From Escherichia coli (GTDB lineage Bacteria > Pseudomonadota > Gammaproteobacteria > Enterobacterales > Enterobacteriaceae), in the NCBI RefSeq assembly GCF_002854065.1, contig NZ_CP024147.1: a stretch of 64,000 bases of DNA, one strand, 5' to 3'. The notes beneath the pieces were generated by a model. It was not told the origin of the DNA and made no database searches. It was given only the letters and a program-made list of their open reading frames with translations. Below are positions 18,478 to 53,652 of this stretch, one piece after another. Positions within the stretch are counted from its first letter, which is position 1, and every line of letters starts with the position of its first letter. Both the position numbers and the translations under genes were made by a program.

Positions 18478-18883
18478 TACCACCTCTTAAAAAAATGCCC
18501 ACATAGTGTAGTGCGGAGCGCATGTTGGGTAAACAGAGTGTTAATGAGAAAATATTACAGAGGAGAATAATTTGTGTGTCAGGTATGTTTTTTGCATTCA
18601 TAAAATGAATGCTCTATATGTTGAAAAAATGAATTTTAAAGCTAAATAGTTTTACATCAAAAAAATAATAATATCATTTCTTGATTACCATGTGCATTTT
18701 TTATCTTACGAATATGCTAGTTTTATCTTACTAAATAAACGATTTGGTGACATGGATGATAATGTTTCAGGCTAAATGTGTGCTTATTACTTGGGCCTTT
18801 ATGGCACTGTATTTATTCATTAAATGGATGTTTGGTGGTTAATTATTATGGAAGTATATGACAGTGAGGACATAAAGGTATAC

Positions 18884-19819
18884 ATGTTAACTAAAAGAAT
18901 ATTATTTTCTTTAATGCTAATAGTTTCACCAGGCGTGGTGGCAAGCGAGAAAGCGCATGAATTGTATGACAGCATATACGGTGGTCAACCTGCGCCCGAT
19001 GTTATAAATACACTGCATAAAATGGCTGAATTGGGAGATGTCGACGCGCAGAGCCTGTTAGGCTGGGAATATTATCAGCCTCGCTATGATACCAAACCTG
19101 ATGTTCAGGAAGCGATTAAATGGTTCGAGTTAGCCGCTAAACAAGGTGACAGAGAAGCTCCGTTAGCGCTGGGGAGTATCTACTACATCGGTGAGCTGGT
19201 GCGGGTGGATTATGCCAAAGCGTATGCACTATTTAATCAGGCCGCGCAATACGGTGTGAATTTAGCATGGTCCAGGTTGGGCATGATGTACGCCAATGGT
19301 CAGTATGTTGAGGTAGATTGTAAGAAAGCGAAGGAATATCTTGATAAAGGTGTCCACATTTATGGTGGTCCGGAAGACTTTCTGGCTACATGTCGAAAAG
19401 ACATGATTGACAGAAAAACGGTTGACGATACGTTACCCGTGATCACGGTTACCCGTTCTGGGATGCGGGATAATTTTTTAGATAAAGATTTTTCCTGCAT
19501 GGATAGCCTCTTCGCCACCACCAATAAATTAGGCGAAGTGGCCAATCTTCGCGTGACATTCAGCATTCGTAGCCCATCCGGTAAGGAGATTAACCAAACG
19601 GTTGGCTTCGCGCCTTTCGGTTTAAACCGGCTGAATATTAGCTTTACTGATTACATATTTGATTCATTTACCAGTAATTCGTCTCTAATTCTTTATAAAC
19701 CGGAATTTGAGCGAAAATCTTGTGCAACTGTAAGGACCACAATCGTTGCCGCAACGGCAACCATTAACGGCAAGGATGTGGAGTTGCTGAAAGCGGGGGC
19801 AATTGAACAAAAGTGGTAA
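18884..19819 (+). CDS. Secreted Sel1-repeat (TPR-like) protein with uncharacterised C-terminal domain
   Basis: ORF 18824..19819; likely start ATG 18884 preceded by AAAGG RBS, giving Sec-type signal peptide MLTKRILFSLMLIVSPGVVA-SE; three to four Sel1-like units (GDVDAQSLLGWEYY..., AIKWFELAAKQGDREAPLALGSIYYIGE..., AKAYALFNQAAQYGVNLAWSRLGMMYANG...); AT-rich; not in K-12 yajR-cyoE junction by recalled gene order. Confidence 0.7.
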   Translation: MLTKRILFSLMLIVSPGVVASEKAHELYDSIYGGQPAPDVINTLHKMAELGDVDAQSLLGWEYYQPRYDTKPDVQEAIKWFELAAKQGDREAPLALGSIYYIGELVRVDYAKAYALFNQAAQYGVNLAWSRLGMMYANGQYVEVDCKKAKEYLDKGVHIYGGPEDFLATCRKDMIDRKTVDDTLPVITVTRSGMRDNFLDKDFSCMDSLFATTNKLGEVANLRVTFSIRSPSGKEINQTVGFAPFGLNRLNISFTDYIFDSFTSNSSLILYKPEFERKSCATVRTTIVAATATINGKDVELLKAGAIEQKW

Positions 19820-19874: not shown

Positions 19875-20417
19875 CTAAGCCGCGAGAATATGCTGAATCG
19901 CCAAAAACATAGGTACAGCACCAAAAGCATTTGGTGTCGCTGAAAGCTGAACAAAGCCGAGACGAGCATAAAAGTTAATGGCGGCAGGGTCAGCATCAAG
20001 ATAAACCCCTTTAATTGGTAATGCCTGGTGAATTATTTTTACATGTTCAAAAAAATCACATAGTAGGTCCTGACCAAAGCCCCGCTTTTGATACTTCCGC
20101 GCCACCCCCAACATGACTAATCTGACAACACCAATCTCTGAAGGCTGTGAACCCTGAAGGACGCCAGAAACGCGTTGTTTTTCCAGCGAATATGCCGTAA
20201 AAGTACAGATGCCAATCAGTTCACCACTTTGTCTGTCAATAAGTGCTTTAGCCGCACAGTCGCTATTACGCACACTTTTCTTTAGCGATGTGCGTACAAA
20301 TTTATCGATAACAGGGTTACCGCAATCAAACTGTTTTTGCCCAGGATAAGTAATATCAGACTGATAATTACAGGAGAGGACTATGGGCAGAGTAATCTCT
20401 TCATGCTTGTCGACCAT
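19875..20417 (-). CDS. GNAT-family acetyltransferase, candidate type II toxin (TacT/AtaT/ItaT-like tRNA acetyltransferase class)
   Basis: 180 aa; N-terminal FDCGNPVIDKFV motif; acetyl-CoA pocket-like RKYQKRGFGQDLL; C-terminal INFYARLGF; start overlaps upstream DUF1778-like ORF by 17 bp; AAGGA RBS. Confidence 0.75.
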   Translation of the reverse strand: MVDKHEEITLPIVLSCNYQSDITYPGQKQFDCGNPVIDKFVRTSLKKSVRNSDCAAKALIDRQSGELIGICTFTAYSLEKQRVSGVLQGSQPSEIGVVRLVMLGVARKYQKRGFGQDLLCDFFEHVKIIHQALPIKGVYLDADPAAINFYARLGFVQLSATPNAFGAVPMFLAIQHILAA

Positions 20418-20712
20418 CGCTGTTTTTCCTTTTCATTAACGCCTTGAGTGCGAGCGTCGGTTGAGCAGGTTCGGCGATGAGTTGGTTCATCAGTTCCCAG
20501 CTTTGATTCGAAAGCTCACGGCGACGTTGGTTATCAAGCACGCTTTCGGCGCGTTCCATAGCAGCGCTCAAAATAAAGGCGCTTAAATCTAACCCAACGG
20601 CTTGCGCAGCTTCACGAAGTCTGTTTTTGGCGTCGGGACTGGTTTTGAGTTCAACCCGCGCATTTTTCAGCGTTTTATCGACATCGGGTAGAGTGGCTGT
20701 TTTTCCAGGCAT
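20401..20712 (-). CDS. DUF1778/ribbon-helix-helix-type antitoxin candidate
   Basis: ORF 20401..20778 trimmed to ATG 20712 (MPGKTATLPDVDKTL...) with AGAGGT RBS 7 nt upstream; 104 aa; pattern VELKTSPDAKNRLREAAQAVGLDLSAFILSA typical of antitoxins paired with GNAT toxins. Confidence 0.65.
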   Translation of the reverse strand: MPGKTATLPDVDKTLKNARVELKTSPDAKNRLREAAQAVGLDLSAFILSAAMERAESVLDNQRRRELSNQSWELMNQLIAEPAQPTLALKALMKRKNSDGRQA

Positions 20713-35996: not shown

Positions 35997-38442
<2,446 letters not shown>

Positions 38443-38495
38443 TGACCTCTGTACTTATAACAGTTTTTATAAAAACAACGTAAGGTTATTGCGCT

Positions 38496-38894
38496 ATGCA
38501 AACACAAATCAAAGTTCGTGGATATCATCTCGACGTTTACCAGCACGTAAACAACGCCCGCTACCTTGAATTTCTCGAAGAAGCCCGCTGGGATGGGTTG
38601 GAAAATAGCGACAGTTTTCACTGGATGACGGCCCATAACATCGCTTTCGTGGTGGTGAATATCAATATTAACTATCGTCGCCCGGCGGTATTAAGCGACT
38701 TGTTAACCATTACGAGCCAGTTACAGCAATTAAACGGTAAAAGCGGCATCTTAAGCCAGGTCATTACACTGGAGCCGGAAGGGCAGGTAGTAGCGGATGC
38801 GCTTATTACGTTTGTTTGTATTGATCTTAAAACGCAGAAAGCATTAGCTCTGGAAGGGGAATTGCGCGAAAAGCTGGAGCAGATGGTTAAGTAA
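38496..38894 (+). CDS. fadM: Long-chain acyl-CoA thioesterase III
   Basis: 132-aa hotdog-fold ORF MQTQIKVRGYHLDVYQHVNNARYLEF... Confidence 0.9.
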   Translation: MQTQIKVRGYHLDVYQHVNNARYLEFLEEARWDGLENSDSFHWMTAHNIAFVVVNININYRRPAVLSDLLTITSQLQQLNGKSGILSQVITLEPEGQVVADALITFVCIDLKTQKALALEGELREKLEQMVK

Positions 38895-38902
38895 ACGTTT
38901 TG

Positions 38903-38933
38903 TGTTGCCGGATGCTCAAGCCGCATCCGGCAA
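38903..38933. repeat. REP-like hairpin between convergent fadM and queC
   Basis: GTTGCCGGATGC-tcaagcc-GCATCCGGCAAC inverted repeat. Confidence 0.5.
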
Positions 38934-38945
38934 CACTTGGAATAA

Positions 38946-39641
38946 TTACTTCAACCCGGTTTTCTGCTTCATCGCTGCCATCACCGTCGGTTTATCGGCC
39001 AGATAATGATTCAAACCGTTGGCGCGTAAATTACATGCCGCACAATGACCGCAACCGTCGCCTTTAATGCCGTTATAGCAGGTCAACGTTTCGTTACGGA
39101 CTAAATCCAGTTTGCCGTAATAATCTGCCAGCGCCCAGGTTTCCGCTTTATCAATCCACATCAGCGGCGTTTCAAAACGAATATCTTTCGCCATGCCCAA
39201 ACTGACGGCATGGTTTAGTGCTTTCACAAACTCATCGCGGCAATCCGGGTAGCCAGAGAAATCCGTTTCGCAGACGCCGGTAATTACGGCTTCTGCTTTT
39301 ACCTGATACGCATATATTGCCGCCAACGTCAGGAACAAAATATTACGCCCTGGGACAAACGTATTCGGGATGCCATCAGCTTCAGGTTCATAATCAGGCA
39401 CCGGAATGCTGTCACGCGTCAGGCTGCTGACCGCCAGCTCGTTGAGCAGCGTTACATCAAGAACCTTATGCGCGCGTGCCCCCAGTTTCAGCGCCAGTTC
39501 GCGTGCCACGTCGATTTCTGCGCGATGGCGCTGACCGTAATCGAACGTCACGCAATGGACTTCATCATATTGTTGTAATGCCTGCACCAGACAGGTGGTG
39601 GAATCCTGGCCTCCACTGAACACAACGACAGCACGTTTCAT
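38946..39641 (-). CDS. queC: 7-cyano-7-deazaguanine synthase
   Basis: 231 aa, PP-loop SGGQDS near N-terminus, C-terminal Cys cluster. Confidence 0.95.
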
Positions 39642-39705
39642 AGATAATCCTGCTTGAACAATAAAAGCGTTATGGTAACGCCTGCGATTAACCCGGACCA
39701 GCTAT

Positions 39706-41406
39706 TCATTGCGACGGCGCGGGAAGCCAGGCTTCGGTAAATTCAAACCAGCCGCGCGGTGTCAGTCGCACACCGTTCACGCCGGGAGGGGCACTAATGC
39801 GATAGTGATAGTTGAATAGCGGCGTCAGCGTCGCGTCTGCCATTAACTGGCTAAAAACCGCTTTCAGGGCATTAAATCGGTTTTCCTCATCAGGCATTAC
39901 TTGCACCGCGTCCAGTGTCGATTGCAAATGGGCATATGCTGGAGCGTCGAAAACATGTGGCCACAGTGGATCGCAACGTAGCCATTGCTCCAGAGTATAT
40001 TCCGGTGCTTCGCCAATTAATCTGTCGCCCATCATGAGGTCTGCGTGTGCCAGTAGGGTCGTGTCGTCCCAGTTTTTTGCGTTATGAAAAATAATTGTGA
40101 GTTCACAGCCTTCCGCTGCCAGTGTCGCCTGTAGGCGTTCTGCCATGGTATGAAGTTCTATCGGTAGGTGATAAACCAGCGTCAAGGTTTTCGGTAGTTT
40201 GACTTCATCCGGTACGTGCCAATGCGGAATAGTCCAGCCTGGCAGTAATGCATGACTGGCGGTGATCAGGTTTTCTCCGACTTCTAACGTTTGTAATAAA
40301 CCGGATTGATGAATAATGGAGATCACTTTTCGCGCCTGCCAGAGGGACAGTCGGGGACTTTTGCGCAACGTTAAATAGCAAAAACCTAAACTGATGCCAC
40401 TACTGACCTGGCTGACCCGTTGCAGCTCCTCCGGTTTGCCGATGGTGATTTGCACGGGATGCCGACAACTGGTTCCCAAATCTTTTTCGAAAAGCGGCGG
40501 AGTTATCCAGTACTCAACCGCTTTAAGCAGCGGATGACGTAAATGGTAATAATCATGGCTTTCCAGGCGCACCAGCTCCGCTGTGAATTGTGTTAAGCGA
40601 AAAGGACCCGTGCCGATCAGTGGGAATTGCGGATGCGCCAGATGACTGCAATAGCTCGCCAGCCGGTGCGCAAGCCAGTAATCAGGGCGATGTAAAAAGA
40701 AGGTCAGACACTGCGGATGGGTGACCTCAATACGCTTCACGCTAATAAATAATTGATCCAGTGCTGGCAGTTGTAACAGCATCAATAATCGCTGGTGTAA
40801 GTGTGAGGCTTTTACTGCATCGCCGTTATGCCAGTGTAGGGTTGAACGAAGATAAAAGTCCCAGCGTAACCCGTCAGCAGAGTTTTCCCAGTGATGCGCT
40901 AAATCGCCAATCGGGCGCTGGGTATTATTATCGAAGCGGGTCAGGCCGGAAAATATCTGTCCGGCGAGATGCTGCTCGGCACGGCCGGGCAAAAAGCCCG
41001 GTTGTAGCGGTTCGAGCGGGCGATAGTAGGGAATACGCAACGTGGGTGTATCGTTTTGCCATTGTCCGCCCATAAACGGCTGTAACAGAGTGCGCAGCTC
41101 ACCTGGGGCCAGTTGCGCCAGCTCCAGCACATCTTGCTGCTTTCCGGTTTCCAGTGCCTTTTCCATCATCGCATTGCGTAGCGATTCTGGCGTGACCAGA
41201 AAGCGTAATTGTCCGCGCTTTCCGCGTCCTGACTGCGCCTGCCACTCCAGCCATCCCGCCTCCTGTGCCTGACGCAACAGCGTACGAACATGGCGTTCGC
41301 TGCAAAAACAGCGTTCGGCCAGTTCGCTGACGGTGACGGTTTGCGGCTTTCCGGCGGAAGGTTGCCACAGACGTTGATACTGGTTAAGACGGTTGAGCAG
41401 TCGCAT
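39706..41406 (-). CDS. ybaE: Solute-binding-like protein YbaE
   Basis: ORF 39706..41421 trimmed to ATG 41406 (566 aa). Confidence 0.85.
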   Translation of the reverse strand: MRLLNRLNQYQRLWQPSAGKPQTVTVSELAERCFCSERHVRTLLRQAQEAGWLEWQAQSGRGKRGQLRFLVTPESLRNAMMEKALETGKQQDVLELAQLAPGELRTLLQPFMGGQWQNDTPTLRIPYYRPLEPLQPGFLPGRAEQHLAGQIFSGLTRFDNNTQRPIGDLAHHWENSADGLRWDFYLRSTLHWHNGDAVKASHLHQRLLMLLQLPALDQLFISVKRIEVTHPQCLTFFLHRPDYWLAHRLASYCSHLAHPQFPLIGTGPFRLTQFTAELVRLESHDYYHLRHPLLKAVEYWITPPLFEKDLGTSCRHPVQITIGKPEELQRVSQVSSGISLGFCYLTLRKSPRLSLWQARKVISIIHQSGLLQTLEVGENLITASHALLPGWTIPHWHVPDEVKLPKTLTLVYHLPIELHTMAERLQATLAAEGCELTIIFHNAKNWDDTTLLAHADLMMGDRLIGEAPEYTLEQWLRCDPLWPHVFDAPAYAHLQSTLDAVQVMPDEENRFNALKAVFSQLMADATLTPLFNYHYRISAPPGVNGVRLTPRGWFEFTEAWLPAPSQ

Positions 41407-41505
41407 ATAAACCCGGAACAATATTATTTAACTATTCACTATTACTTCCGTATATATCAGGTGATACTCAATCACCATTAACCGTGTCACAGAGTGGAGA
41501 AAGAA

Positions 41506-42324
41506 ATGGCTCGTCTGGCAGCATTTGATATGGATGGCACTTTATTGATGCCTGACCATCATTTAGGTGAGAAAACCCTCTCTACTTTGGCGCGACTGCG
41601 TGAACGCGACATTACCCTCACTTTTGCCACGGGGCGTCATGCGCTGGAGATGCAGCATATTCTCGGGGCGATATCGCTGGATGCGTATTTGATTACCGGC
41701 AACGGAACGCGCGTGCATTCTCTGGAAGGTGAACTTTTACATCGTGATGATTTACCTGCGGATGTCGCGGAGCTGGTGCTGTATCAGCAATGGGATACCC
41801 GAGCCAGCATGCATATTTTCAATGACGACGGTTGGTTTACCGGGAAAGAGATCCCTGCGTTGTTGCAGGCATTTGTCTATAGCGGTTTTCGTTATCAAAT
41901 AATCGATGTCAAAAAAATGCCACTCGGCAGCGTCACCAAGATCTGCTTCTGTGGCGATCACGACGATCTTACACGCTTGCAGATCCAGCTACACGAAGCA
42001 TTATCCGAGCGTGCACATTTGTGTTTTTCCGCCACGGATTGCCTCGAAGTGCTGCCGGTGGGCTGCAATAAAGGCGCTGCACTGACGGTGCTGACCCAAC
42101 ATTTAGGTTTATCGTTGCGCGATTGCATGGCCTTTGGTGATGCGATGAACGATCGCGAAATGTTAGGCAGCGTCGGTAGCGGATTTATTATGGGCAATGC
42201 GATGCCGCAACTGCGCGCGGAGCTCCCGCATTTACCGGTGATTGGACATTGCCGAAATCAGGCTGTCTCTCACTATTTGACGCACTGGCTGGACTATCCA
42301 CATCTACCTTATTCCCCCGAATAA
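41506..42324 (+). CDS. cof: HAD-family HMP-PP phosphatase Cof
   Basis: ORF begins with GTG at 41494; ATG 41506 gives [14 protein letters not shown]... (272 aa) with HAD DxDGT motif. Confidence 0.9.
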
Positions 42325-42340
42325 CGAGATCCCTTCCAGC

Positions 42341-42366
42341 ACCGGGCAATTGCCCGGTTTTTTTTG
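42341..42366 (+). terminator. Terminator after cof
   Basis: Perfect palindrome ACCGGGCAATTGCCCGGT followed by T8. Confidence 0.7.
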
Positions 42367-42476
42367 CGTTGAATTTGTCATTTTGTGCCGTGGTGTTTAA
42401 ACCGCACAGAATAAATTGTCGTGATTTCACCTTTAAAATAAAATTAAAAGAGAAAAAAATTCTCTGTGGAAGGGCT

Positions 42477-42935
42477 ATGTTAGATAAAATTGACCGTAAG
42501 CTGCTGGCCTTACTGCAGCAGGATTGCACCCTCTCTTTGCAGGCACTGGCTGAAGCCGTTAATCTGACAACCACCCCTTGCTGGAAGCGCCTGAAACGGC
42601 TGGAGGACGACGGTATCCTTATCGGCAAAGTCGCCCTGCTGGATCCGGAAAAAATAGGCCTCGGTCTGACCGCCTTTGTGCTGATAAAAACGCAACATCA
42701 CAGCAGCGAATGGTATTGCCGCTTTGTCACGGTGGTTACCGAAATGCCAGAAGTGCTGGGGTTCTGGCGCATGGCTGGTGAATACGATTATCTGATGCGC
42801 GTCCAGGTTGCCGACATGAAACGCTACGACGAGTTTTATAAGCGTCTGGTAAACAGCGTGCCGGGGCTGTCGGACGTCACTTCCAGCTTCGCGATGGAAC
42901 AGATTAAATACACCACTTCTTTACCCATCGAATAA
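42477..42935 (+). CDS. decR: Lrp/AsnC-family transcriptional regulator DecR (YbaO)
   Basis: ORF 42249..42935 trimmed to ATG 42477 ([31 protein letters not shown]...), 152 aa. Confidence 0.9.
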
Positions 42936-42964
42936 ATATCCAGAATCAGGTCAGGACACAACGC

Positions 42965-46511
<3,547 letters not shown>

Positions 46512-46623
46512 ATAGCGCAATATTTCATCGTTGGTGCAAAAATGTAACGCACTGTGCACTGTCATAGTGCGTTTTCATTTTCAAACTTCTTAACTTCCTG
46601 CTCTCTTTCTCATTTTTCATTTC

Positions 46624-46639
46624 TGGCACACCGCTTGCA
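46624..46639 (+). promoter_or_regulatory. Sigma54 promoter (-24/-12) of glnK-amtB
   Basis: TGGCAC-accgc-TTGCA, exact GG-N10-GC spacing, about 55 bp upstream of glnK ATG. Confidence 0.65.
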
Positions 46640-46691
46640 ATATCTTCTTCGTGTAGCAGAACCATTACCGAATTCTGACCGGAGGGGATCT

Positions 46692-47030
46692 ATGAAGCTG
46701 GTGACCGTGATAATCAAACCATTCAAGCTGGAAGACGTTCGTGAAGCGTTATCTTCCATTGGTATTCAGGGCCTGACCGTCACCGAAGTGAAAGGTTTCG
46801 GGCGTCAGAAAGGGCATGCCGAGCTGTACCGGGGGGCGGAATACAGCGTCAACTTCCTGCCAAAAGTAAAAATTGATGTGGCGATTGCTGATGACCAACT
46901 CGATGAAGTGATCGATATCGTCAGTAAGGCGGCTTACACCGGAAAAATTGGCGACGGCAAAATCTTTGTCGCTGAATTGCAACGCGTCATTCGTATTCGT
47001 ACCGGCGAAGCCGACGAAGCGGCGCTGTAA
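46692..47030 (+). CDS. glnK: Nitrogen regulatory protein PII-2
   Basis: ORF 46554..47030 trimmed to ATG 46692 (MKLVTVIIKPFKLEDVREAL...), 112 aa. Confidence 0.97.
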   Translation: MKLVTVIIKPFKLEDVREALSSIGIQGLTVTEVKGFGRQKGHAELYRGAEYSVNFLPKVKIDVAIADDQLDEVIDIVSKAAYTGKIGDGKIFVAELQRVIRIRTGEADEAAL

Positions 47031-47059
47031 TCTCTGGCACACAGCAACAGGAACGAAAA

Positions 47060-48346
47060 ATGAAGATAGCGACGATAAAAACTGGGCTTGCTTCACTGGC
47101 GATGCTGCCGGGACTGGTAATGGCTGCACCTGCGGTGGCCGATAAAGCCGACAATGCGTTTATGATGATCTGTACTGCGCTAGTGCTGTTTATGACTATT
47201 CCGGGGATTGCCCTGTTTTACGGTGGGTTGATTCGCGGCAAAAACGTGCTGTCGATGCTGACGCAGGTGACGGTGACATTTGCACTGGTCTGTATTCTCT
47301 GGGTGGTTTACGGTTACTCGCTGGCGTTTGGTGAGGGCAACAACTTCTTCGGCAACATTAACTGGTTGATGCTGAAAAACATCGAACTGACGGCGGTGAT
47401 GGGCAGCATTTATCAGTATATCCACGTGGCGTTTCAGGGATCGTTTGCCTGCATTACCGTAGGCTTGATAGTTGGGGCGCTGGCGGAACGAATCCGCTTC
47501 TCAGCTGTGTTGATTTTCGTGGTGGTATGGCTGACGCTCTCTTACATTCCGATTGCGCATATGGTCTGGGGCGGTGGTTTGCTGGCTTCTCACGGTGCGC
47601 TGGATTTCGCGGGTGGCACCGTGGTGCACATTAACGCCGCAATCGCCGGTCTGGTGGGCGCGTATCTGATAGGCAAACGCGTGGGCTTCGGCAAAGAGGC
47701 GTTTAAACCGCACAACCTGCCGATGGTCTTCACCGGGACTGCCATTCTCTATATCGGTTGGTTTGGCTTTAACGCCGGGTCAGCGGGCACGGCGAATGAA
47801 ATCGCGGCACTGGCATTTGTGAATACTGTGGTCGCAACGGCGGCGGCAATTCTTGGCTGGATCTTCGGTGAATGGGCGCTGCGTGGTAAGCCTTCACTGC
47901 TGGGGGCGTGTTCTGGCGCGATTGCCGGTCTGGTCGGCGTGACGCCAGCGTGTGGCTACATTGGTGTTGGCGGCGCGTTGATTATCGGCGTGGTAGCTGG
48001 TCTGGCGGGCTTGTGGGGCGTTACCATGCTCAAACGCTTGCTGCGGGTGGATGATCCCTGCGATGTCTTCGGTGTGCACGGCGTTTGTGGCATTGTCGGC
48101 TGTATCATGACCGGGATTTTTGCCGCCAGCTCGCTGGGCGGCGTGGGCTTCGCTGAAGGTGTGACGATGGGCCATCAGTTGCTGGTACAGTTGGAAAGCA
48201 TTGCCATTACGATCGTCTGGTCCGGTGTGGTGGCATTTATTGGCTACAAACTGGCGGATCTGACGGTTGGCCTGCGTGTGCCGGAAGAACAAGAGCGAGA
48301 AGGGCTGGACGTCAACAGTCACGGCGAGAATGCCTATAACGCGTAA
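47060..48346 (+). CDS. amtB: Ammonium transporter AmtB
   Basis: 428 aa with signal peptide MKIATIKTGLASLAMLPGLVMA and 11-TM Amt fold. Confidence 0.97.
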   Translation: MKIATIKTGLASLAMLPGLVMAAPAVADKADNAFMMICTALVLFMTIPGIALFYGGLIRGKNVLSMLTQVTVTFALVCILWVVYGYSLAFGEGNNFFGNINWLMLKNIELTAVMGSIYQYIHVAFQGSFACITVGLIVGALAERIRFSAVLIFVVVWLTLSYIPIAHMVWGGGLLASHGALDFAGGTVVHINAAIAGLVGAYLIGKRVGFGKEAFKPHNLPMVFTGTAILYIGWFGFNAGSAGTANEIAALAFVNTVVATAAAILGWIFGEWALRGKPSLLGACSGAIAGLVGVTPACGYIGVGGALIIGVVAGLAGLWGVTMLKRLLRVDDPCDVFGVHGVCGIVGCIMTGIFAASSLGGVGFAEGVTMGHQLLVQLESIAITIVWSGVVAFIGYKLADLTVGLRVPEEQEREGLDVNSHGENAYNA

Positions 48347-48363
48347 CAAGCACTGCAAAAAAC

Positions 48364-48397
48364 AGCCGGACGGTTTTCACCTCCGGCTATTTTTTTA
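48364..48397. terminator. Bidirectional terminator between convergent amtB and tesB
   Basis: GCCGGA ... TCCGGC stem flanked by A6 upstream and T7 downstream. Confidence 0.55.
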
Positions 48398-49255
48398 ATT
48401 GTGATTACGCATCACCCCTTCCTGAACGGTCGAGGCAACCAGTACGCCGTCCTGGGTATAAAACTCACCGCGCACAAAGCCACGTGCGCTGGACGCCGAG
48501 GTGCTCTCCACGCTATACAGCAGCCATTCATTCAAATTAAACGGGCGATGGAACCACATGGAATGGTCAATGGTGGCAATCTGAATCCCCGGTTCGAGAA
48601 AACCGATGCCGTGCGGCTGTAGAGCTACCGGCAGGAAGTTAAGATCAGAAGCGTAACCGAGCAGATACTGATGAACGCGCAGGTCATCCGGCACGCTACC
48701 ATTTGCGCGGATCCACACCTGACGATGTGGTTCTGCGACGTGACCTTTCAGTGGGTTATGAAACTCCACCGGACGGACTTCCAGCGGACGATCGCAGATG
48801 AATTTATCTTTCAGCACTGGCGGCAGCAGGTGCGCCAGCGACTGGGCGATTTGCGTTTCCGAAGGCAGGCCATCAGGCGCTGGCGCGGACGGCATTGTTT
48901 TTTGATGTTCGAAACCCGCTTCTGGTGCCTGGAAAGAGGCCGTCATATAAAAAATCGGTTTGCCGTTTTGAATAGCAGCAACCCGGCGGGCGCTGAAGCT
49001 GTTACCGTCACGCAGCGTTTCGACATCATAAATAATCGGCTTCTTACTATCGCCAGGGCGAAGAAAGTAGCTGTGAAACGAATGTACCAGCCGCTCTTCA
49101 GGGACGGTCTCTTTTGCAGCATACAAGGCCTGACCCACGACCTGGCCGCCAAACACCTGGCGTAAACCTAAATCTTCACTCTGGCCGCGAAAGAGTCCTT
49201 CCTCAATTTTTTCCAGATTTAACAATGTCAGTAAATTTTTTAGCGCCTGACTCAT
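48395..49255 (-). CDS. tesB: Acyl-CoA thioesterase II
   Basis: ORF 48395..49273 trimmed to ATG 49255 ([24 protein letters not shown]...), 286 aa. Confidence 0.93.
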
Positions 49256-49472
49256 ATAACTCTCCAGTAACAAAGCTGCCGCAGCAAGCCAAAGTGAGTT
49301 GAGTATAACGCAAATTTGCTACTGGTCCGATGGGTGCAATGGTCTGAATTACGGGCTAATTACAGGCAGAAATGCGTGATGTGTGCCACACTTGTTGACG
49401 TTACTATTTTGTTAACCACTCTTCCGGCGAGGAAAGTTAGCCCGCTGGTGCATTGATAATAAGGAGAAATGA

Positions 49473-50045
49473 ATGAAACTCGTGCACATGGCCAGTGGTT
49501 TAGCGGTTGCGATTGCGTTGGCGGCTTGCGCAGATAAAAGCGCGGATATTCAGACGCCAGCCCCGGCTGCAAATACGTCTATTTCAGCAACACAACAACC
49601 TGCTATCCAGCAACCGAATGTCTTCGGTACCGTCTGGATCCGTCAGAAAGTCGCACTGCCGCCTGATGCTGTGCTGACCGTGACACTTTCTGACGCGTCG
49701 TTAGCCGATGCACCGTCAAAAGTGCTGGCGCAGAAAGCGGTGCGTACTGAAGGTAAACAGTCACCATTCAGCTTTGTTCTGCCATTTAACCCGGCAGATG
49801 TTCAGCCGAACGCGCGTATTCTGTTGAGTGCGGCGATTACCGTGAATGACAAACTGGTATTTATCACCGATACCGTTCAGCCGGTGATCAACCAGGGCGG
49901 AACTAAAGCCGACCTGACATTGGTGCCGGTACAGCAAACCGCCGTGCCGGTTCAGGCCAGCGGTGGCGCAACGACTACCGTACCTTCGACTTCACCAACT
50001 CAGGTGAATCCGTCTTCGGCAGTTCCAGCTCCTACGCAATATTAA
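49473..50045 (+). CDS. ybaY: Lipoprotein YbaY
   Basis: 190 aa with lipobox LAAC. Confidence 0.88.
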   Translation: MKLVHMASGLAVAIALAACADKSADIQTPAPAANTSISATQQPAIQQPNVFGTVWIRQKVALPPDAVLTVTLSDASLADAPSKVLAQKAVRTEGKQSPFSFVLPFNPADVQPNARILLSAAITVNDKLVFITDTVQPVINQGGTKADLTLVPVQQTAVPVQASGGATTTVPSTSPTQVNPSSAVPAPTQY

Positions 50046-50053
50046 GCGACGTT

Positions 50054-50077
50054 AACCCTCTCCGCCCGGAGAGGGTT
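50054..50077. terminator. Hairpin between convergent ybaY and atl
   Basis: AACCCTCTCC-gccc-GGAGAGGGTT perfect inverted repeat. Confidence 0.55.
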
Positions 50078-50465
50078 AGTAGTTCCAGCGATAACGCTGC
50101 AAGTCGATTTGCCCGCTTCCCGATACCATCACACCTTCTGCCAGTAATGCCTGTCGCTGACGCTGTAAATCCGGTCCGGTTAGCGAAATTGTGCCGTGGC
50201 GATTAACCACCCGGTGCCAGGGTAAGGTGCTGCCTTCAGGGAGACGCTTTAACACACCGCCCACCTGGCGCGCGGCGCGGGGCGATCCCGCCAGTTTCGC
50301 CACATCACCGTAAGTGGTTACATAGCCTTCGGGAATAGCGGCGACGATTTGCCAGACGCGTTGGGGAAATGAATCTTCTTTTTCCATCTTTTCTTCCTGA
50401 GTTAATTTTTCAGCATAATCTGGAAAAACGCCCGAGTGAAGCCGCATTGCGCAAGAAACCAGCAT
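50076..50465 (-). CDS. atl: DNA base-flipping alkyltransferase-like protein Atl (YbaZ)
   Basis: ORF 50076..50486; likely ATG at 50465 (129 aa); O6-alkylguanine-DNA-alkyltransferase-like fold lacking catalytic Cys (PWHRVVN). Confidence 0.8.
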   Translation of the reverse strand: MLVSCAMRLHSGVFPDYAEKLTQEEKMEKEDSFPQRVWQIVAAIPEGYVTTYGDVAKLAGSPRAARQVGGVLKRLPEGSTLPWHRVVNRHGTISLTGPDLQRQRQALLAEGVMVSGSGQIDLQRYRWNY

Positions 50466-50541
50466 CTGGCACGCAATGGGTTGCAATTAGCCGGGGCAGC
50501 AGTGATAATGCGCCTGCGCGTTGGTTCTCAACGCTCTCAAT

Positions 50542-50655
50542 GGGGGCTCTGTTGGTTCTCCCGCAACGCTACTCTGTTTACCAGGTCAGGTCCGGAAGGA
50601 AGCAGCCAAGGCAGATGACGCGTGTGCCGGGATGTAGCTGGCAGGGCCCCCACCC
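50542..50655 (+). ncRNA. ffs: 4.5S RNA (signal recognition particle RNA)
   Basis: 114-nt stretch GGGGGCTCTGTTGGTTCTCCCGCAACGC...GGCAGGGCCCCCACCC matches remembered 4.5S RNA; located between atl and ybaA as in K-12. Confidence 0.92.
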
Positions 50656-50765
50656 ATTTCTGCCTCCCACCGTTTCGTCAAAAAATCCCAACATGGCTAA
50701 ACTTTAACCACAACTGACGTCGCAAGAATTGTCTGGCTGCGCAGTACGCTTCGGAGGTATGTCTG

Positions 50766-51119
50766 ATGAAGTATGTTGATGGTTTTGTGGTTGCCGTTCC
50801 TGCCGATAAAAAGGATGCCTATCGGGAAATGGCCGCTAAGGCCGCGCCATTGTTTAAAGAGTTTGGCGCGCTTCGTATTGTCGAATGCTGGGCCAGCGAT
50901 GTACCGGATGGCAAAGTGACCGATTTTCGTATGGCGGTGAAAGCGGAAGAGAATGAAGAGGTTGTCTTTAGCTGGATTGAATACCCTTCAAAAGAGGTCC
51001 GCGACGCAGCTAATCAAAAGATGATGTCGGACCCACGGATGAAAGAGTTCGGCGAGTCCATGCCGTTTGACGGCAAGCGAATGATCTATGGCGGATTCGA
51101 GTCAATCATCGACGAATAG
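50766..51119 (+). CDS. ybaA: DUF1428 family protein YbaA
   Basis: 117-aa ORF MKYVDGFVVAVPADKKDAYREMAAK... Confidence 0.88.
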   Translation: MKYVDGFVVAVPADKKDAYREMAAKAAPLFKEFGALRIVECWASDVPDGKVTDFRMAVKAEENEEVVFSWIEYPSKEVRDAANQKMMSDPRMKEFGESMPFDGKRMIYGGFESIIDE

Positions 51120-51160
51120 GTAGCGTGACGGGCTGTGCGGCGTGCCGTCAGCCCAAAAAT

Positions 51161-52216
51161 TCACAAATGTTGCTCGGCCCAGCGTAAGAAATCTTCTTTC
51201 GGTAATGCCTTGCTGTAGAGCCAGCCCTGACCGTAGTGCACGCCATGCTGGCGTAGCCACTCTTCTTGTTTACTGGTTTCGATTCCCTCCGCTACTATTT
51301 TCAGTTTCAGTGTTTTTGCCATTTCGATGATATGCGGCGTGACATTTTTATATTCCAGCGCATCAACGAAAGATTTATCGATCTTCAGAATGTCGACATC
51401 CAGATCCTGTAAATAACTTAAACTTGAATACCCCGTACCAAAATCATCAAGATAAATTTCATGGCCCGCCTCCCGGTAGCGAGAAATTATCGGGGCGCTG
51501 GTTTTCGGATCGGCAAACTCGCGTTCAGTGAGTTCAAGCGCGATCTGTCTGGGATTAACCTGATAGTGATTGATCATTTCACGCAGCAATTGCGGGATTT
51601 TTTCCGAGGTGAGCACGGTGGATTCAAGATTGATCGAAATATGCTGCTGTGGATGCTGACGCAGCCAGTCGCCCATATCTTCAAAGACGCTTCTTATAAT
51701 CAGTAGCGTCAATGGCTCAGAAAGGCCCGTTTGCTGTGCCAGCGGAATAAAACTATCTGGTGACAACCAACTACCGTCTGTCTGCGGCCAGCGCGCCAGT
51801 GCCTCAGCACCGACAATTTTGCCATTGGCTAAGGAGACAATCGGCTGATAGTGCACGCAAATATCACGATTTTCGATAGCATCCTGCAGCCGATGATGCG
51901 GTGACTGGATGCGGCGCAAAATGCGCAGCACAAACATCGCTGCCAGCAGGCCAATCACCAACCCGAGCGGTAACCAAATAAAGACTTGCCGATGCCAGCC
52001 TTTCTGCAACATTTTCGATGAAGCCCAGGTGATAATTGAAATATTCATCTCCGGGAAGGGCAGGATATCGTAAATGATTCCATTATTTTCGATATGCTCA
52101 CCGGGTGTTTTTTGTAGCCTGGTAATAATTCCCTGACCAATTTCATCGCTGCTGGTTATGACAACGTTATGGGCATTGCCAATAATGGCGGCATCAATTT
52201 GCCATGAGCTATAGGG
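51161..52216 (-). pseudogene. pdeB: pdeB (ylaB) c-di-GMP phosphodiesterase, C-terminal fragment (EAL domain) truncated by IS1
   Basis: EAL-domain ORF 51161..52048; hand translation shows the frame stays open upstream to the IS1 junction at 52216 (…PYSSWQIDAAIIGNAHNVV…). Confidence 0.8.
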
Positions 52217-52271
52217 GGTGATGCTGCCAACTTACTGATTTAGTGTATGATGGTGTTTTTGAGGTGCTCCA

Positions 52272-52547
52272 GTGGCTTCTGTTTCTATCAGCTGTCCCTC
52301 CTGTTCAGCTACTGACGGGGTGGTGCGTAACGGCAAAAGCACTGCCGGACATCAGCGCTATCTCTGCTCTCACTGCCGTAAAACATGGCAACTGCAGTTC
52401 ACTTACACCGCTTCTCAACCCGGTACGCACCAGAAAATCATTGATATGGCCATGAATGGCGTTGGATGCCGGGCAACCGCCCGCATTATGGGCGTTGGCC
52501 TCAACACGATTTTCCGCCATTTAAAAAACTCAGGCCGCAGTCGGTAA
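52272..52547 (+). CDS. insA: IS1 protein InsA
   Basis: GTG-initiated 91-aa [38 protein letters not shown]... Confidence 0.93.
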
Positions 52548-52969
52548 CCTCGCGCATACAGCCGGGCAGTGACGTCATCGTCTGCGCGGAAATGGACGAA
52601 CAGTGGGGATACGTCGGGGCTAAATCGCGCCAGCGCTGGCTGTTTTACGCGTATGACAGGCTCCGGAAGACGGTTGTTGCGCACGTATTCGGTGAACGCA
52701 CTATGGCGACGCTGGGGCGTCTTATGAGCCTGCTGTCACCCTTTGACGTGGTGATATGGATGACGGATGGCTGGCCGCTGTATGAATCCCGCCTGAAGGG
52801 AAAGCTGCACGTAATCAGCAAGCGATATACGCAGCGAATTGAGCGGCATAACCTGAATCTGAGGCAGCACCTGGCACGGCTGGGACGGAAGTCGCTGTCG
52901 TTCTCAAAATCGGTGGAGCTGCATGACAAAGTCATCGGGCATTATCTGAACATAAAACACTATCAATAA
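52466..52969 (+). CDS. insB: IS1 InsB' frame (expressed as InsAB' transposase by -1 frameshift)
   Basis: 167-aa ORF in the -1 frame relative to insA; A6C slippery motif at 52523..52529. Confidence 0.9.
52523..52529 (+). promoter_or_regulatory. IS1 programmed -1 ribosomal frameshift motif (A6C)
   Basis: AAAAAAC within TTTAAAAAACTC in insA/insB' overlap. Confidence 0.7.
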
Positions 52970-52984
52970 GTTGGAGTCATTACC

Positions 52985-53495
52985 AGCTATAGGGAATGAC
53001 ATCAATAAAGGAAGCGGGGTCGATCATGACGACATAATGTGCCGTTCCCATGGCGACCATGTAACGGATAATGCCTAAATCGTTATGTGATGTTAACCAG
53101 ACACGATAACCATCTTTCGAAATTTTACCTGGCTCGGGGAAGGTATCGGGCGGACTTTCATGCTCCAGAGACGAACACTGGGGAACGTTGTTATCGATAT
53201 AAACCACTTCCTGAATATAGCGATAACTGTAAGATACCCGACGCATTTCCATGAGATGGGCTTCGCTACAGGCAGCGCCTTGCCATCTTTCCAGCTCTTG
53301 CATCGCATCTTTCCCTTGTGTCGCCACCTTATTGGCCCGAATAGCGACGCGGGAGGAATAGGTATCCAGCTCTTCAATAAACGATGTTTCTACCTGCTGA
53401 TGGGCCAGCCAGATGCTTAAGCCGACAGGCAGCAATACTGAAAGAATCAGTACTCCCGAAATAAGGCCGACCAGATGTCGTGTTCTCACCAGCAT
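52985..53495 (-). pseudogene. pdeB: pdeB (ylaB) N-terminal fragment (periplasmic CSS-motif sensor domain) truncated by IS1
   Basis: ORF 52980..53495 (MLVRTRHLVGLISGVLILSVLLPVG...), runs into IS1 right end; last codons before junction encode PYS, duplicated at the other junction. Confidence 0.8.
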
Positions 53496-53652
53496 ATCCT
53501 TATTAACACAGTGTAGGGAAAGTATATCTGATTGTGGAAAAAGGCTGGCAGGAGATAAGGAGGTAGAGCTGGTATTTCATGAAGTGATGGGTGGAAACGA
53601 TCGTTGTCATTTGACCAGGCGCAGAGCTTTACGCCTGGTATGTAATCCTAAC

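Follow-up and report, generated by a model that had tools for sequence, protein, structure and literature searches.

An IS1 element flanked by a 10-bp target-site duplication in the pdeB gene of an Escherichia coli chromosome

The interrupted pdeB gene

The locus occupies positions 51161 to 53495 of the 64-kb window, the whole stretch of E. coli DNA that was analysed, and its bounds correspond to the stop codon of pdeB and the more upstream ATG of this gene. The order of the genes in the region, ybaA, pdeB, ylaC, maa, hha, tomB and acrB, is the same as in K-12, and pdeB is also found between ybaA and ylaC in BL21(DE3) and in the wastewater isolate CUWW06. In contrast to the unsplit gene of K-12, the pdeB gene of the window is split after codon 168 by an insertion sequence, IS1, which lies antisense to pdeB. 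The features identified in this region are as follows.

51161..52216, minus strand: 3′ fragment of pdeB, codons 166–516 plus stop; open and colinear with K-12 PdeB, with 99.97% identity to CUWW06 as far as the junction
51161..52048, minus strand: residual 295-aa open reading frame (ORF), PdeB M222–L516, with the second transmembrane segment (TM2) and the EAL domain (ORF list and frame analysis)
52207..52216, no strand: left copy of the target-site duplication, AGCTATAGGG (exact repeat and empty site of CUWW06)
52217..52984, plus strand: complete IS1 of 768 bp, IS1B-type (ends and sequence comparison)
52217..52239, plus strand: left inverted repeat of IS1 (IRL), which agrees with the reverse-complemented right end at 18/23 positions
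52272..52547, plus strand: insA, 91 aa, GTG start (ORF list)
52272..52969, plus strand: insAB′ transposase frame, 232 aa through a −1 shift at A6C; fusion frame intact, no stops
52523..52529, plus strand: A6C (AAAAAAC), the site of the −1 programmed frameshift, at IS position 307
52962..52984, minus strand: right inverted repeat of IS1 (IRR), which supplies the Trp codon and the TAA that end the truncated PdeB
52980..53489, minus strand: 5′ fragment of pdeB, PdeB residues 1–168 plus Trp and stop (ORF list and frame analysis)
52985..52994, no strand: right copy of the target-site duplication, AGCTATAGGG (exact repeat and empty site of CUWW06)

When IS1 and one copy of the repeat were removed, the two fragments were colinear with K-12 PdeB, as expected from the first-pass annotation, which had assigned them to a pdeB gene split by IS1. 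Counted from the RefSeq start, the GTG at 53489, the restored gene comprises 516 codons; the ATG at 53495, two codons upstream, would make it 518. Its product can be aligned without gaps to K-12 PdeB (YlaB, b0457), 516 against 516 residues, of which 508 are identical and 8 are substituted, and 18 of the 1551 nucleotides differ between the two genes. Apart from IS1 itself, no frameshift or stop was found by translation in either pdeB fragment, in line with the earlier reading that both are free of other stops, and a single open frame runs through the gene after excision.

The restored protein has the architecture in common with K-12 PdeB, namely TM1, a CSS domain, TM2 and an EAL domain, an arrangement that defines the CSS-domain phosphodiesterases (PMC5897775). 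TM1 begins at residue 6 and TM2 spans residues 243–265 approximately; a Pfam search located the CSS motif (PF12792) at residues 38–242 (E = 2.6e-53), with the conserved cysteines C74 and C105, and the EAL domain (PF00563) at residues 274–501 (E = 9.9e-67). By inspection, the catalytic motifs are kept: EAL at 303, DDFGTG at 422 and EGIE at 475. Three residues before the last of these, the window protein has the substitution M472I, which is absent from K-12 and CUWW06, and position 96 is A in K-12, G in CUWW06 and V in the window. The insertion had initially been placed between the periplasmic sensor domain and the EAL domain; this placement is incorrect, and the break after codon 168 falls inside the periplasmic CSS domain (38–242), downstream of both cysteines. 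The truncated PdeB is 169 aa long from the RefSeq GTG start (171 aa if the ATG at 53495 is used) and retains TM1 along with some two thirds of the CSS domain, in which C74 and C105 both lie.

The IS1 element and its target site

The element was described at first reading as a complete 768-bp IS1 with both inverted repeats, insA, insB′ and the A6C motif, and this description holds in every part. Its canonical ends, GGTGATG... and ...CATTACC, are present; its first bases are GGTGATGCTGCCAACTTACTGAT, the reverse complement of the other end is GGTAATGACTCCAACTTATTGAT, and the two agree at 18 of 23 positions. The insB′ frame overlaps insA and ends at 52969, and the 232-aa InsAB′ frame is open and scores 242.7 bits against the NCBIfam model NF033558, “IS1 family transposase” (cut-off, 100 bits), with profile positions 1–199 of 199 covered. 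The length and imperfect terminal inverted repeats of IS1, as well as the role of A6C in frameshifting, have been described previously (PMC12428005). Length, terminal repeats, the insA/A6C/insB′ layout and the 232-aa InsAB′ are all shared with the IS1B/IS1C type of K-12, to which the window copy is identical at 767 of 768 positions. The single difference lies at IS position 704, which is A in K-12 IS1B/C but T in the window copy and in IS1A, and which places Leu rather than Gln at residue 217 of InsAB′. K-12 IS1A is more distant, with 760 of 768 positions identical (8 differences), and the insA product differs from K-12 IS1A InsA by one substitution. Copies 100% identical to the window IS1 were found widely among other E. 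coli chromosomes and plasmids, where they are named “IS1-like element IS1B family transposase” by PGAP, and in other strains a single chromosome may have them at as many as 40 or more places. No second IS1 or other long internal repeat was detected in the 64-kb window, and with this single copy a composite transposon or a nearby partner element was ruled out.

The direct repeat AGCTATAGGG flanks the element on both sides and is exactly 10 bp long; neither 9 nor 11 bp fits. The flanking repeat had already been noticed at first reading, together with the doubling of the codons for P-Y-S, and both are borne out, the junctions reading ...IPYSW followed by a stop and ...TPYSSWQ.... The close genomes CUWW06 and 100416 have an empty site with one copy of the repeat, which identifies it as a genuine target-site duplication. 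When both window flanks are placed on the CUWW06 locus, their overlap consists of precisely those 10 bases (locus positions 3060–3069). A 9-bp duplication accompanied by a chance base was ruled out, as the canonical ends of IS1 leave 10 bases and the overlap in CUWW06 is also 10. In addition, removal of IS1 with 10 bp restores the single open frame, whereas removal with 8 or 9 bp leaves the gene frameshifted, with 15–24 stops. Older reviews give a range of 8–11 bp for IS1 duplications. The 10 bp found here differ from the usual length of 8 or 9 bp (PMC12428005), and this is the sole slightly unusual feature of the insertion.

Related genomes and other IS1 insertions in pdeB

The closest complete genome is that of CUWW06 (NZ_CP182139; wastewater, Thailand), in which pdeB is an intact gene of 1551 nucleotides. 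Apart from IS1, this genome is colinear with the window over all 64 kb; window positions 36000–52216 and 52985–64000 are each matched in a single piece at 100.0% identity, and positions 1–36648 at 99.95%, where the differences are 5 mismatches and a 12-bp indel. Within pdeB, two nucleotide differences separate the window from CUWW06, and both are non-synonymous (V96G and I472M, from the window to CUWW06). In strain 100416 (NZ_CM128593; human stool, Gambia), the right-hand 11 kb is 100.0% identical and the site is uninterrupted. Thus, the two closest complete genomes combine flanks that are 99.9–100% identical with an empty site that carries one copy of the repeat. Since such near-identical genomes keep the empty site, the insertion is recent, and the 516-codon frame agrees with the initial view of a recent insertion into an otherwise intact pdeB.

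Of 5,426 complete RefSeq E. coli genomes, a set that does not include the source genome of the window, 5,417 show no interruption within 100 bp on either side of the site. The absence of the source genome from this set raised the question of a Shigella origin, for which there was little reason, as the window contains a single insertion sequence within its 64 kb and is 99.95–100% identical to two E. coli strains. Neither junction of the window was found as a contiguous match in any of these 5,426 genomes, BL21(DE3) included. B-lineage genomes had been named as an example of where to look for the same insertion; this suggestion did not stand, and the pdeB gene of BL21(DE3) is intact at 1551 nucleotides. 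An exact-protein search with the 169-aa product identified contigs of the draft assembly GCA_035821435.1 and of the SRA run ERR10985082, in which pdeB runs into the right end of IS1 at the same base as in the window; the same search with the 171-aa product of the ATG start gave no match. The exact 295-aa ORF was located on another contig of GCA_035821435.1, in which the left end of IS1 runs into pdeB, again at the same base. Both junctions are therefore present in the draft assembly, each on a separate contig terminating in IS1, and the right junction alone in ERR10985082.

Counting that of the window, the IS1-associated lesions identified in pdeB lie at different positions and represent at least six independent events. 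The other five are listed below in plus-strand coordinates of the restored gene, in which the duplication of the window occupies 1047–1056.

1136–1144: IS1 in M172-1 (NZ_CP058714), 9-bp duplication
1159–1167: IS1 in 13P484A (NZ_CP019280) and five other genomes, 9-bp duplication
1215–1222: IS1 in 2017-02-1CC (NZ_AP027759), 8-bp duplication
838/839: lesion in 100416, rearranged junction
690/691: lesion in SEV1/SEV4, rearranged junction

The insertions in M172-1, 13P484A and 2017-02-1CC share with that of the window the same element, the same orientation and a location in the CSS-domain-coding part of pdeB, and their insertion points lie 89, 112 and 168 bp closer to the 5′ end of the gene. These three alleles are annotated by PGAP as pdeB pseudogene fragments. 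Insertional inactivation by IS1 is textbook knowledge, and IS1-split pdeB alleles at other positions are already annotated in RefSeq. The local GC content around the six insertion points ranges from 0.37 to 0.62 and is not uniformly AT-rich.

Origin and predicted consequences of the allele

The most probable origin of this arrangement, with a probability of about 94%, is a simple and recent transposition of an IS1B-type element into chromosomal pdeB, which would have created a null allele in a lineage close to CUWW06 and 100416. In this process, the IS1 transposase made a staggered cut 10 bp apart at the target, and repair doubled AGCTATAGGG on both sides of the element. Translation from the native start now proceeds through ...I-P-Y-S and one extra Trp to the TAA in the right end of IS1, yielding a 169-aa stub, and the part encoding TM2 and the EAL domain, separated from its promoter and start codon, would most likely not be made. 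The earlier interpretation of the locus was thus largely right, with an incorrect domain placement, an incorrect guess at the lineage and an over-confident phenotype.

Two other origins can be set against a recent transposition, and both are given almost no weight. The multicopy nature of IS1 often misleads assemblers, and both short-read assemblies that carry a junction break at IS1, so a copy misplaced inside pdeB might be suspected; however, a mis-join would not yield a precise 10-bp target duplication, and mis-assembly is ruled out because the junctions were seen independently, both of them in GCA_035821435.1 and the right one in ERR10985082. Equally hard to credit is a long residence of IS1 in a pdeB gene that became a decaying pseudogene long ago. 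Both nucleotide differences from CUWW06 are non-synonymous, which could hint at relaxed constraint, but two substitutions are too few for relaxed selection to be deduced from them, and position 96 varies in any case. Moreover, neither fragment has acquired frameshifts or stops, the duplication is perfect, the element is 100% identical to widespread copies, and the empty site persists in genomes that are 99.9–100% identical in the flanks.

The effect of the insertion on the remaining gene, and the reason for its presence, also admit other readings. The 3′ fragment could be transcribed, by read-through or from a hybrid promoter at the end of IS1, and translated from M222 into a constitutive phosphodiesterase that lacks the inhibitory, disulfide-forming CSS domain; such a product would be the natural counterpart of the active fragment that DegP/DegQ processing has been described to generate from PdeC and PdeB. 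Consistent with this, the 295-aa ORF at 51161..52048 survives with TM2 and a complete EAL domain, the cloned TM2+EAL portion of the paralogue PdeC shows high activity and processing of PdeB yields comparable fragments (PMC5897775), and IRL read outward holds TTGGCA, a −35-like hexamer. However, a promoter scan detected no minus-strand sigma-70-like site near the junction or leading out of IRL toward the 3′ fragment, its total of 5 sites was at the level of shuffled sequences (4.3 expected), and by inspection the best −10-like hexamer, TATAGC, lies just 11 bp from TTGGCA. Given the negative scan and the lack of a properly spaced −10 element, a hybrid outward promoter at IRL was rejected. Furthermore, the pdeB frame entering from the 3′ side meets a stop 6 codons inside IS1, the next start codon, M222, lies 168 nucleotides downstream, and a GGAG directly abuts its ATG without a spacer, which is poor spacing. 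A deregulated enzyme is therefore highly improbable, and the residual ORF is probably not expressed, as judged from these sequence features. The suggestion that loss of pdeB is positively selected, with IS1 as the commonest route of a convergent inactivation, would complement a recent transposition rather than replace it, and it was considered unlikely, if a little less so. The recurrence of at least six independent lesions at different positions speaks for it. Against this, the 59,329 chromosomal IS1 places counted in the 5,426 complete E. coli genomes (4,970 of which carry IS1), multiplied by 1.55 kb and divided by about 5 Mb, give a rough chance expectation of approximately 18 IS1 places in pdeB, and lesions were detected in 11 genomes, which indicates no enrichment, so that pdeB is not demonstrably a hotspot for IS1 or a target of selection. 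In addition, the site is uninterrupted in the 5,417 genomes mentioned above, and PdeB is reported to rank with the best-conserved phosphodiesterases, being found in more than 90% of 61 strains (PMC5897775).

Under the favoured explanation of a simple, recent transposition, the pdeB gene of the window is predicted to be a null allele, and with the next gene, ybaA, in convergent orientation, no downstream gene would be affected. The strain would lose one of five redundant, redox-controlled CSS-domain c-di-GMP phosphodiesterases. The activity of PdeB is lowered by a disulfide formed by DsbA in the CSS domain, and in K-12 the deletion of all five of these enzymes resulted only in a denser matrix in the deeper layers of macrocolonies (PMC5897775). 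Because even this five-fold deletion changes only the deep-layer matrix, loss of PdeB alone would be expected to have a subtle effect, perhaps a small or condition-specific change in the biofilm matrix, with no large change in motility. The motility and biofilm effects forecast in the first-pass annotation were thus probably overstated. Phenotypes of a ΔpdeB mutant of Shigella flexneri have been reported in a 2026 preprint (PMC13320778).

The allele is a clean lineage marker, present in 0 of the 5,426 complete RefSeq E. coli genomes and yet in at least one draft assembly and one SRA run, and it might serve as a natural pdeB null for studies of redox-controlled c-di-GMP signalling in this lineage. 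Beyond strain bookkeeping it has little significance; pdeB is non-essential, and the event is real but ordinary and raises no new question. The wide distribution of identical copies elsewhere gives indirect support to the view that the IS1 copy of the window is able to transpose, and the insertion adds one more datum for the activity of IS1B-type elements in wild E. coli.

IS1-associated lesions of pdeB in other genomes

Besides the insertion in the window, at least five further independent IS1-associated lesions of pdeB were identified in complete E. coli genomes, using queries that covered one IS1 orientation and the gene short of its 3′-end. The lesions lie in the following records:

equivalent to window about 51850–53170: NZ_CP019280, NZ_AP027759, NZ_CP058714, NZ_CM128593, NZ_CP151548

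IS1 has the same orientation in all of them, the only one within reach of the queries. In three records the insertion is simple, and the duplications measure 9, 9 and 8 bp. In two others, the left flank is foreign: strain 100416 has an integrase there, and SEV1/SEV4 has the sfm fimbrial genes. Such flanks imply a deletion or rearrangement mediated by IS1.

Strain 100416 is a sister of the window's strain, and its sequence is 100% identical to the right flank of the window. In its chromosome (NZ_CM128593.1 3726500–3762000), ybaA and the 3′ 838 nt of pdeB are replaced by an IS1 identical to that of the window, which adjoins a site-specific integrase gene neighboring ffs. A second identical IS1 truncates a SEL1/TPR-repeat gene that is intact in the window (18824..19819), and IS1 occupies 39 places in the 100416 chromosome. 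The element thus seems highly active in this lineage.

A promoter-like candidate (ATGACA, a 17-nt spacer and AATAAT; 10/12 matches) was observed on the + strand at window 52158–52186, antisense inside pdeB, approximately 30 bp upstream of the left end of IS1 and directed into the element; in the promoter scan, the regional total of such sites around pdeB and IS1 was no higher than expected by chance.

Sequence variation in IS1 and pdeB

The IS1 of the window differs from IS1B/IS1C of K-12 at a single base, IS1 position 704 (window 52920), such that residue 217 of the InsAB′ transposase is Leu in this element and in IS1A, whereas it is Gln in K-12 IS1B/C; the other eight “type II” mismatches are common to the window's variant and K-12 IS1B/C. 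The K-12 IS1B/C elements are reported to transpose almost never (PMC12428005). Wild strains, however, carry numerous identical copies of the window's variant, so L217Q alone may account for the poor transposition of K-12 IS1B/C.

The pdeB gene itself differs from that of CUWW06, the closest complete genome, at two nucleotides, both non-synonymous (V96G and I472M); two changes do not suffice to conclude that selection was relaxed once IS1 had inserted. Residue 472 (window about 51293), located three residues ahead of the EGIE motif, is Ile in the window's allele and Met in K-12 and CUWW06.

Relatedness and accessory genes across the window

Relatedness shifts sharply near pdeB: the left 16 kb (36000–52216) shows ≥99% identity to only 15 of 5,424 genomes, as against 3,634 genomes for the right 11 kb (52985–64000). 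Mismatches to BL21(DE3), a comparison genome with intact pdeB, drop from 12–23 per kb at 45–49 kb to 1–7 per kb across most of 53–61 kb; the 57-kb bin is higher, at 12 per kb, and at 62 kb the density jumps to 33 per kb. This shift looks like a recombination mosaic rather than an effect of IS1.

IS1 aside, the only indel relative to CUWW06 over the 64 kb is an in-frame 12-bp tandem duplication (GGGATCTTTATT) at window 8294–8305, inside the first of three features annotated in the CUWW06 record:

7271–8866, minus strand: espY3, T3SS effector pentapeptide-repeat protein EspY3, between pgpA and yajO
18824–19819: TPR/SEL1-repeat protein
19875–20712: TacA-like antitoxin with GNAT toxin, between yajR and cyoE

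None of the three is known as a K-12 gene, which would suggest that the window's background is a non-K-12 phylogroup.
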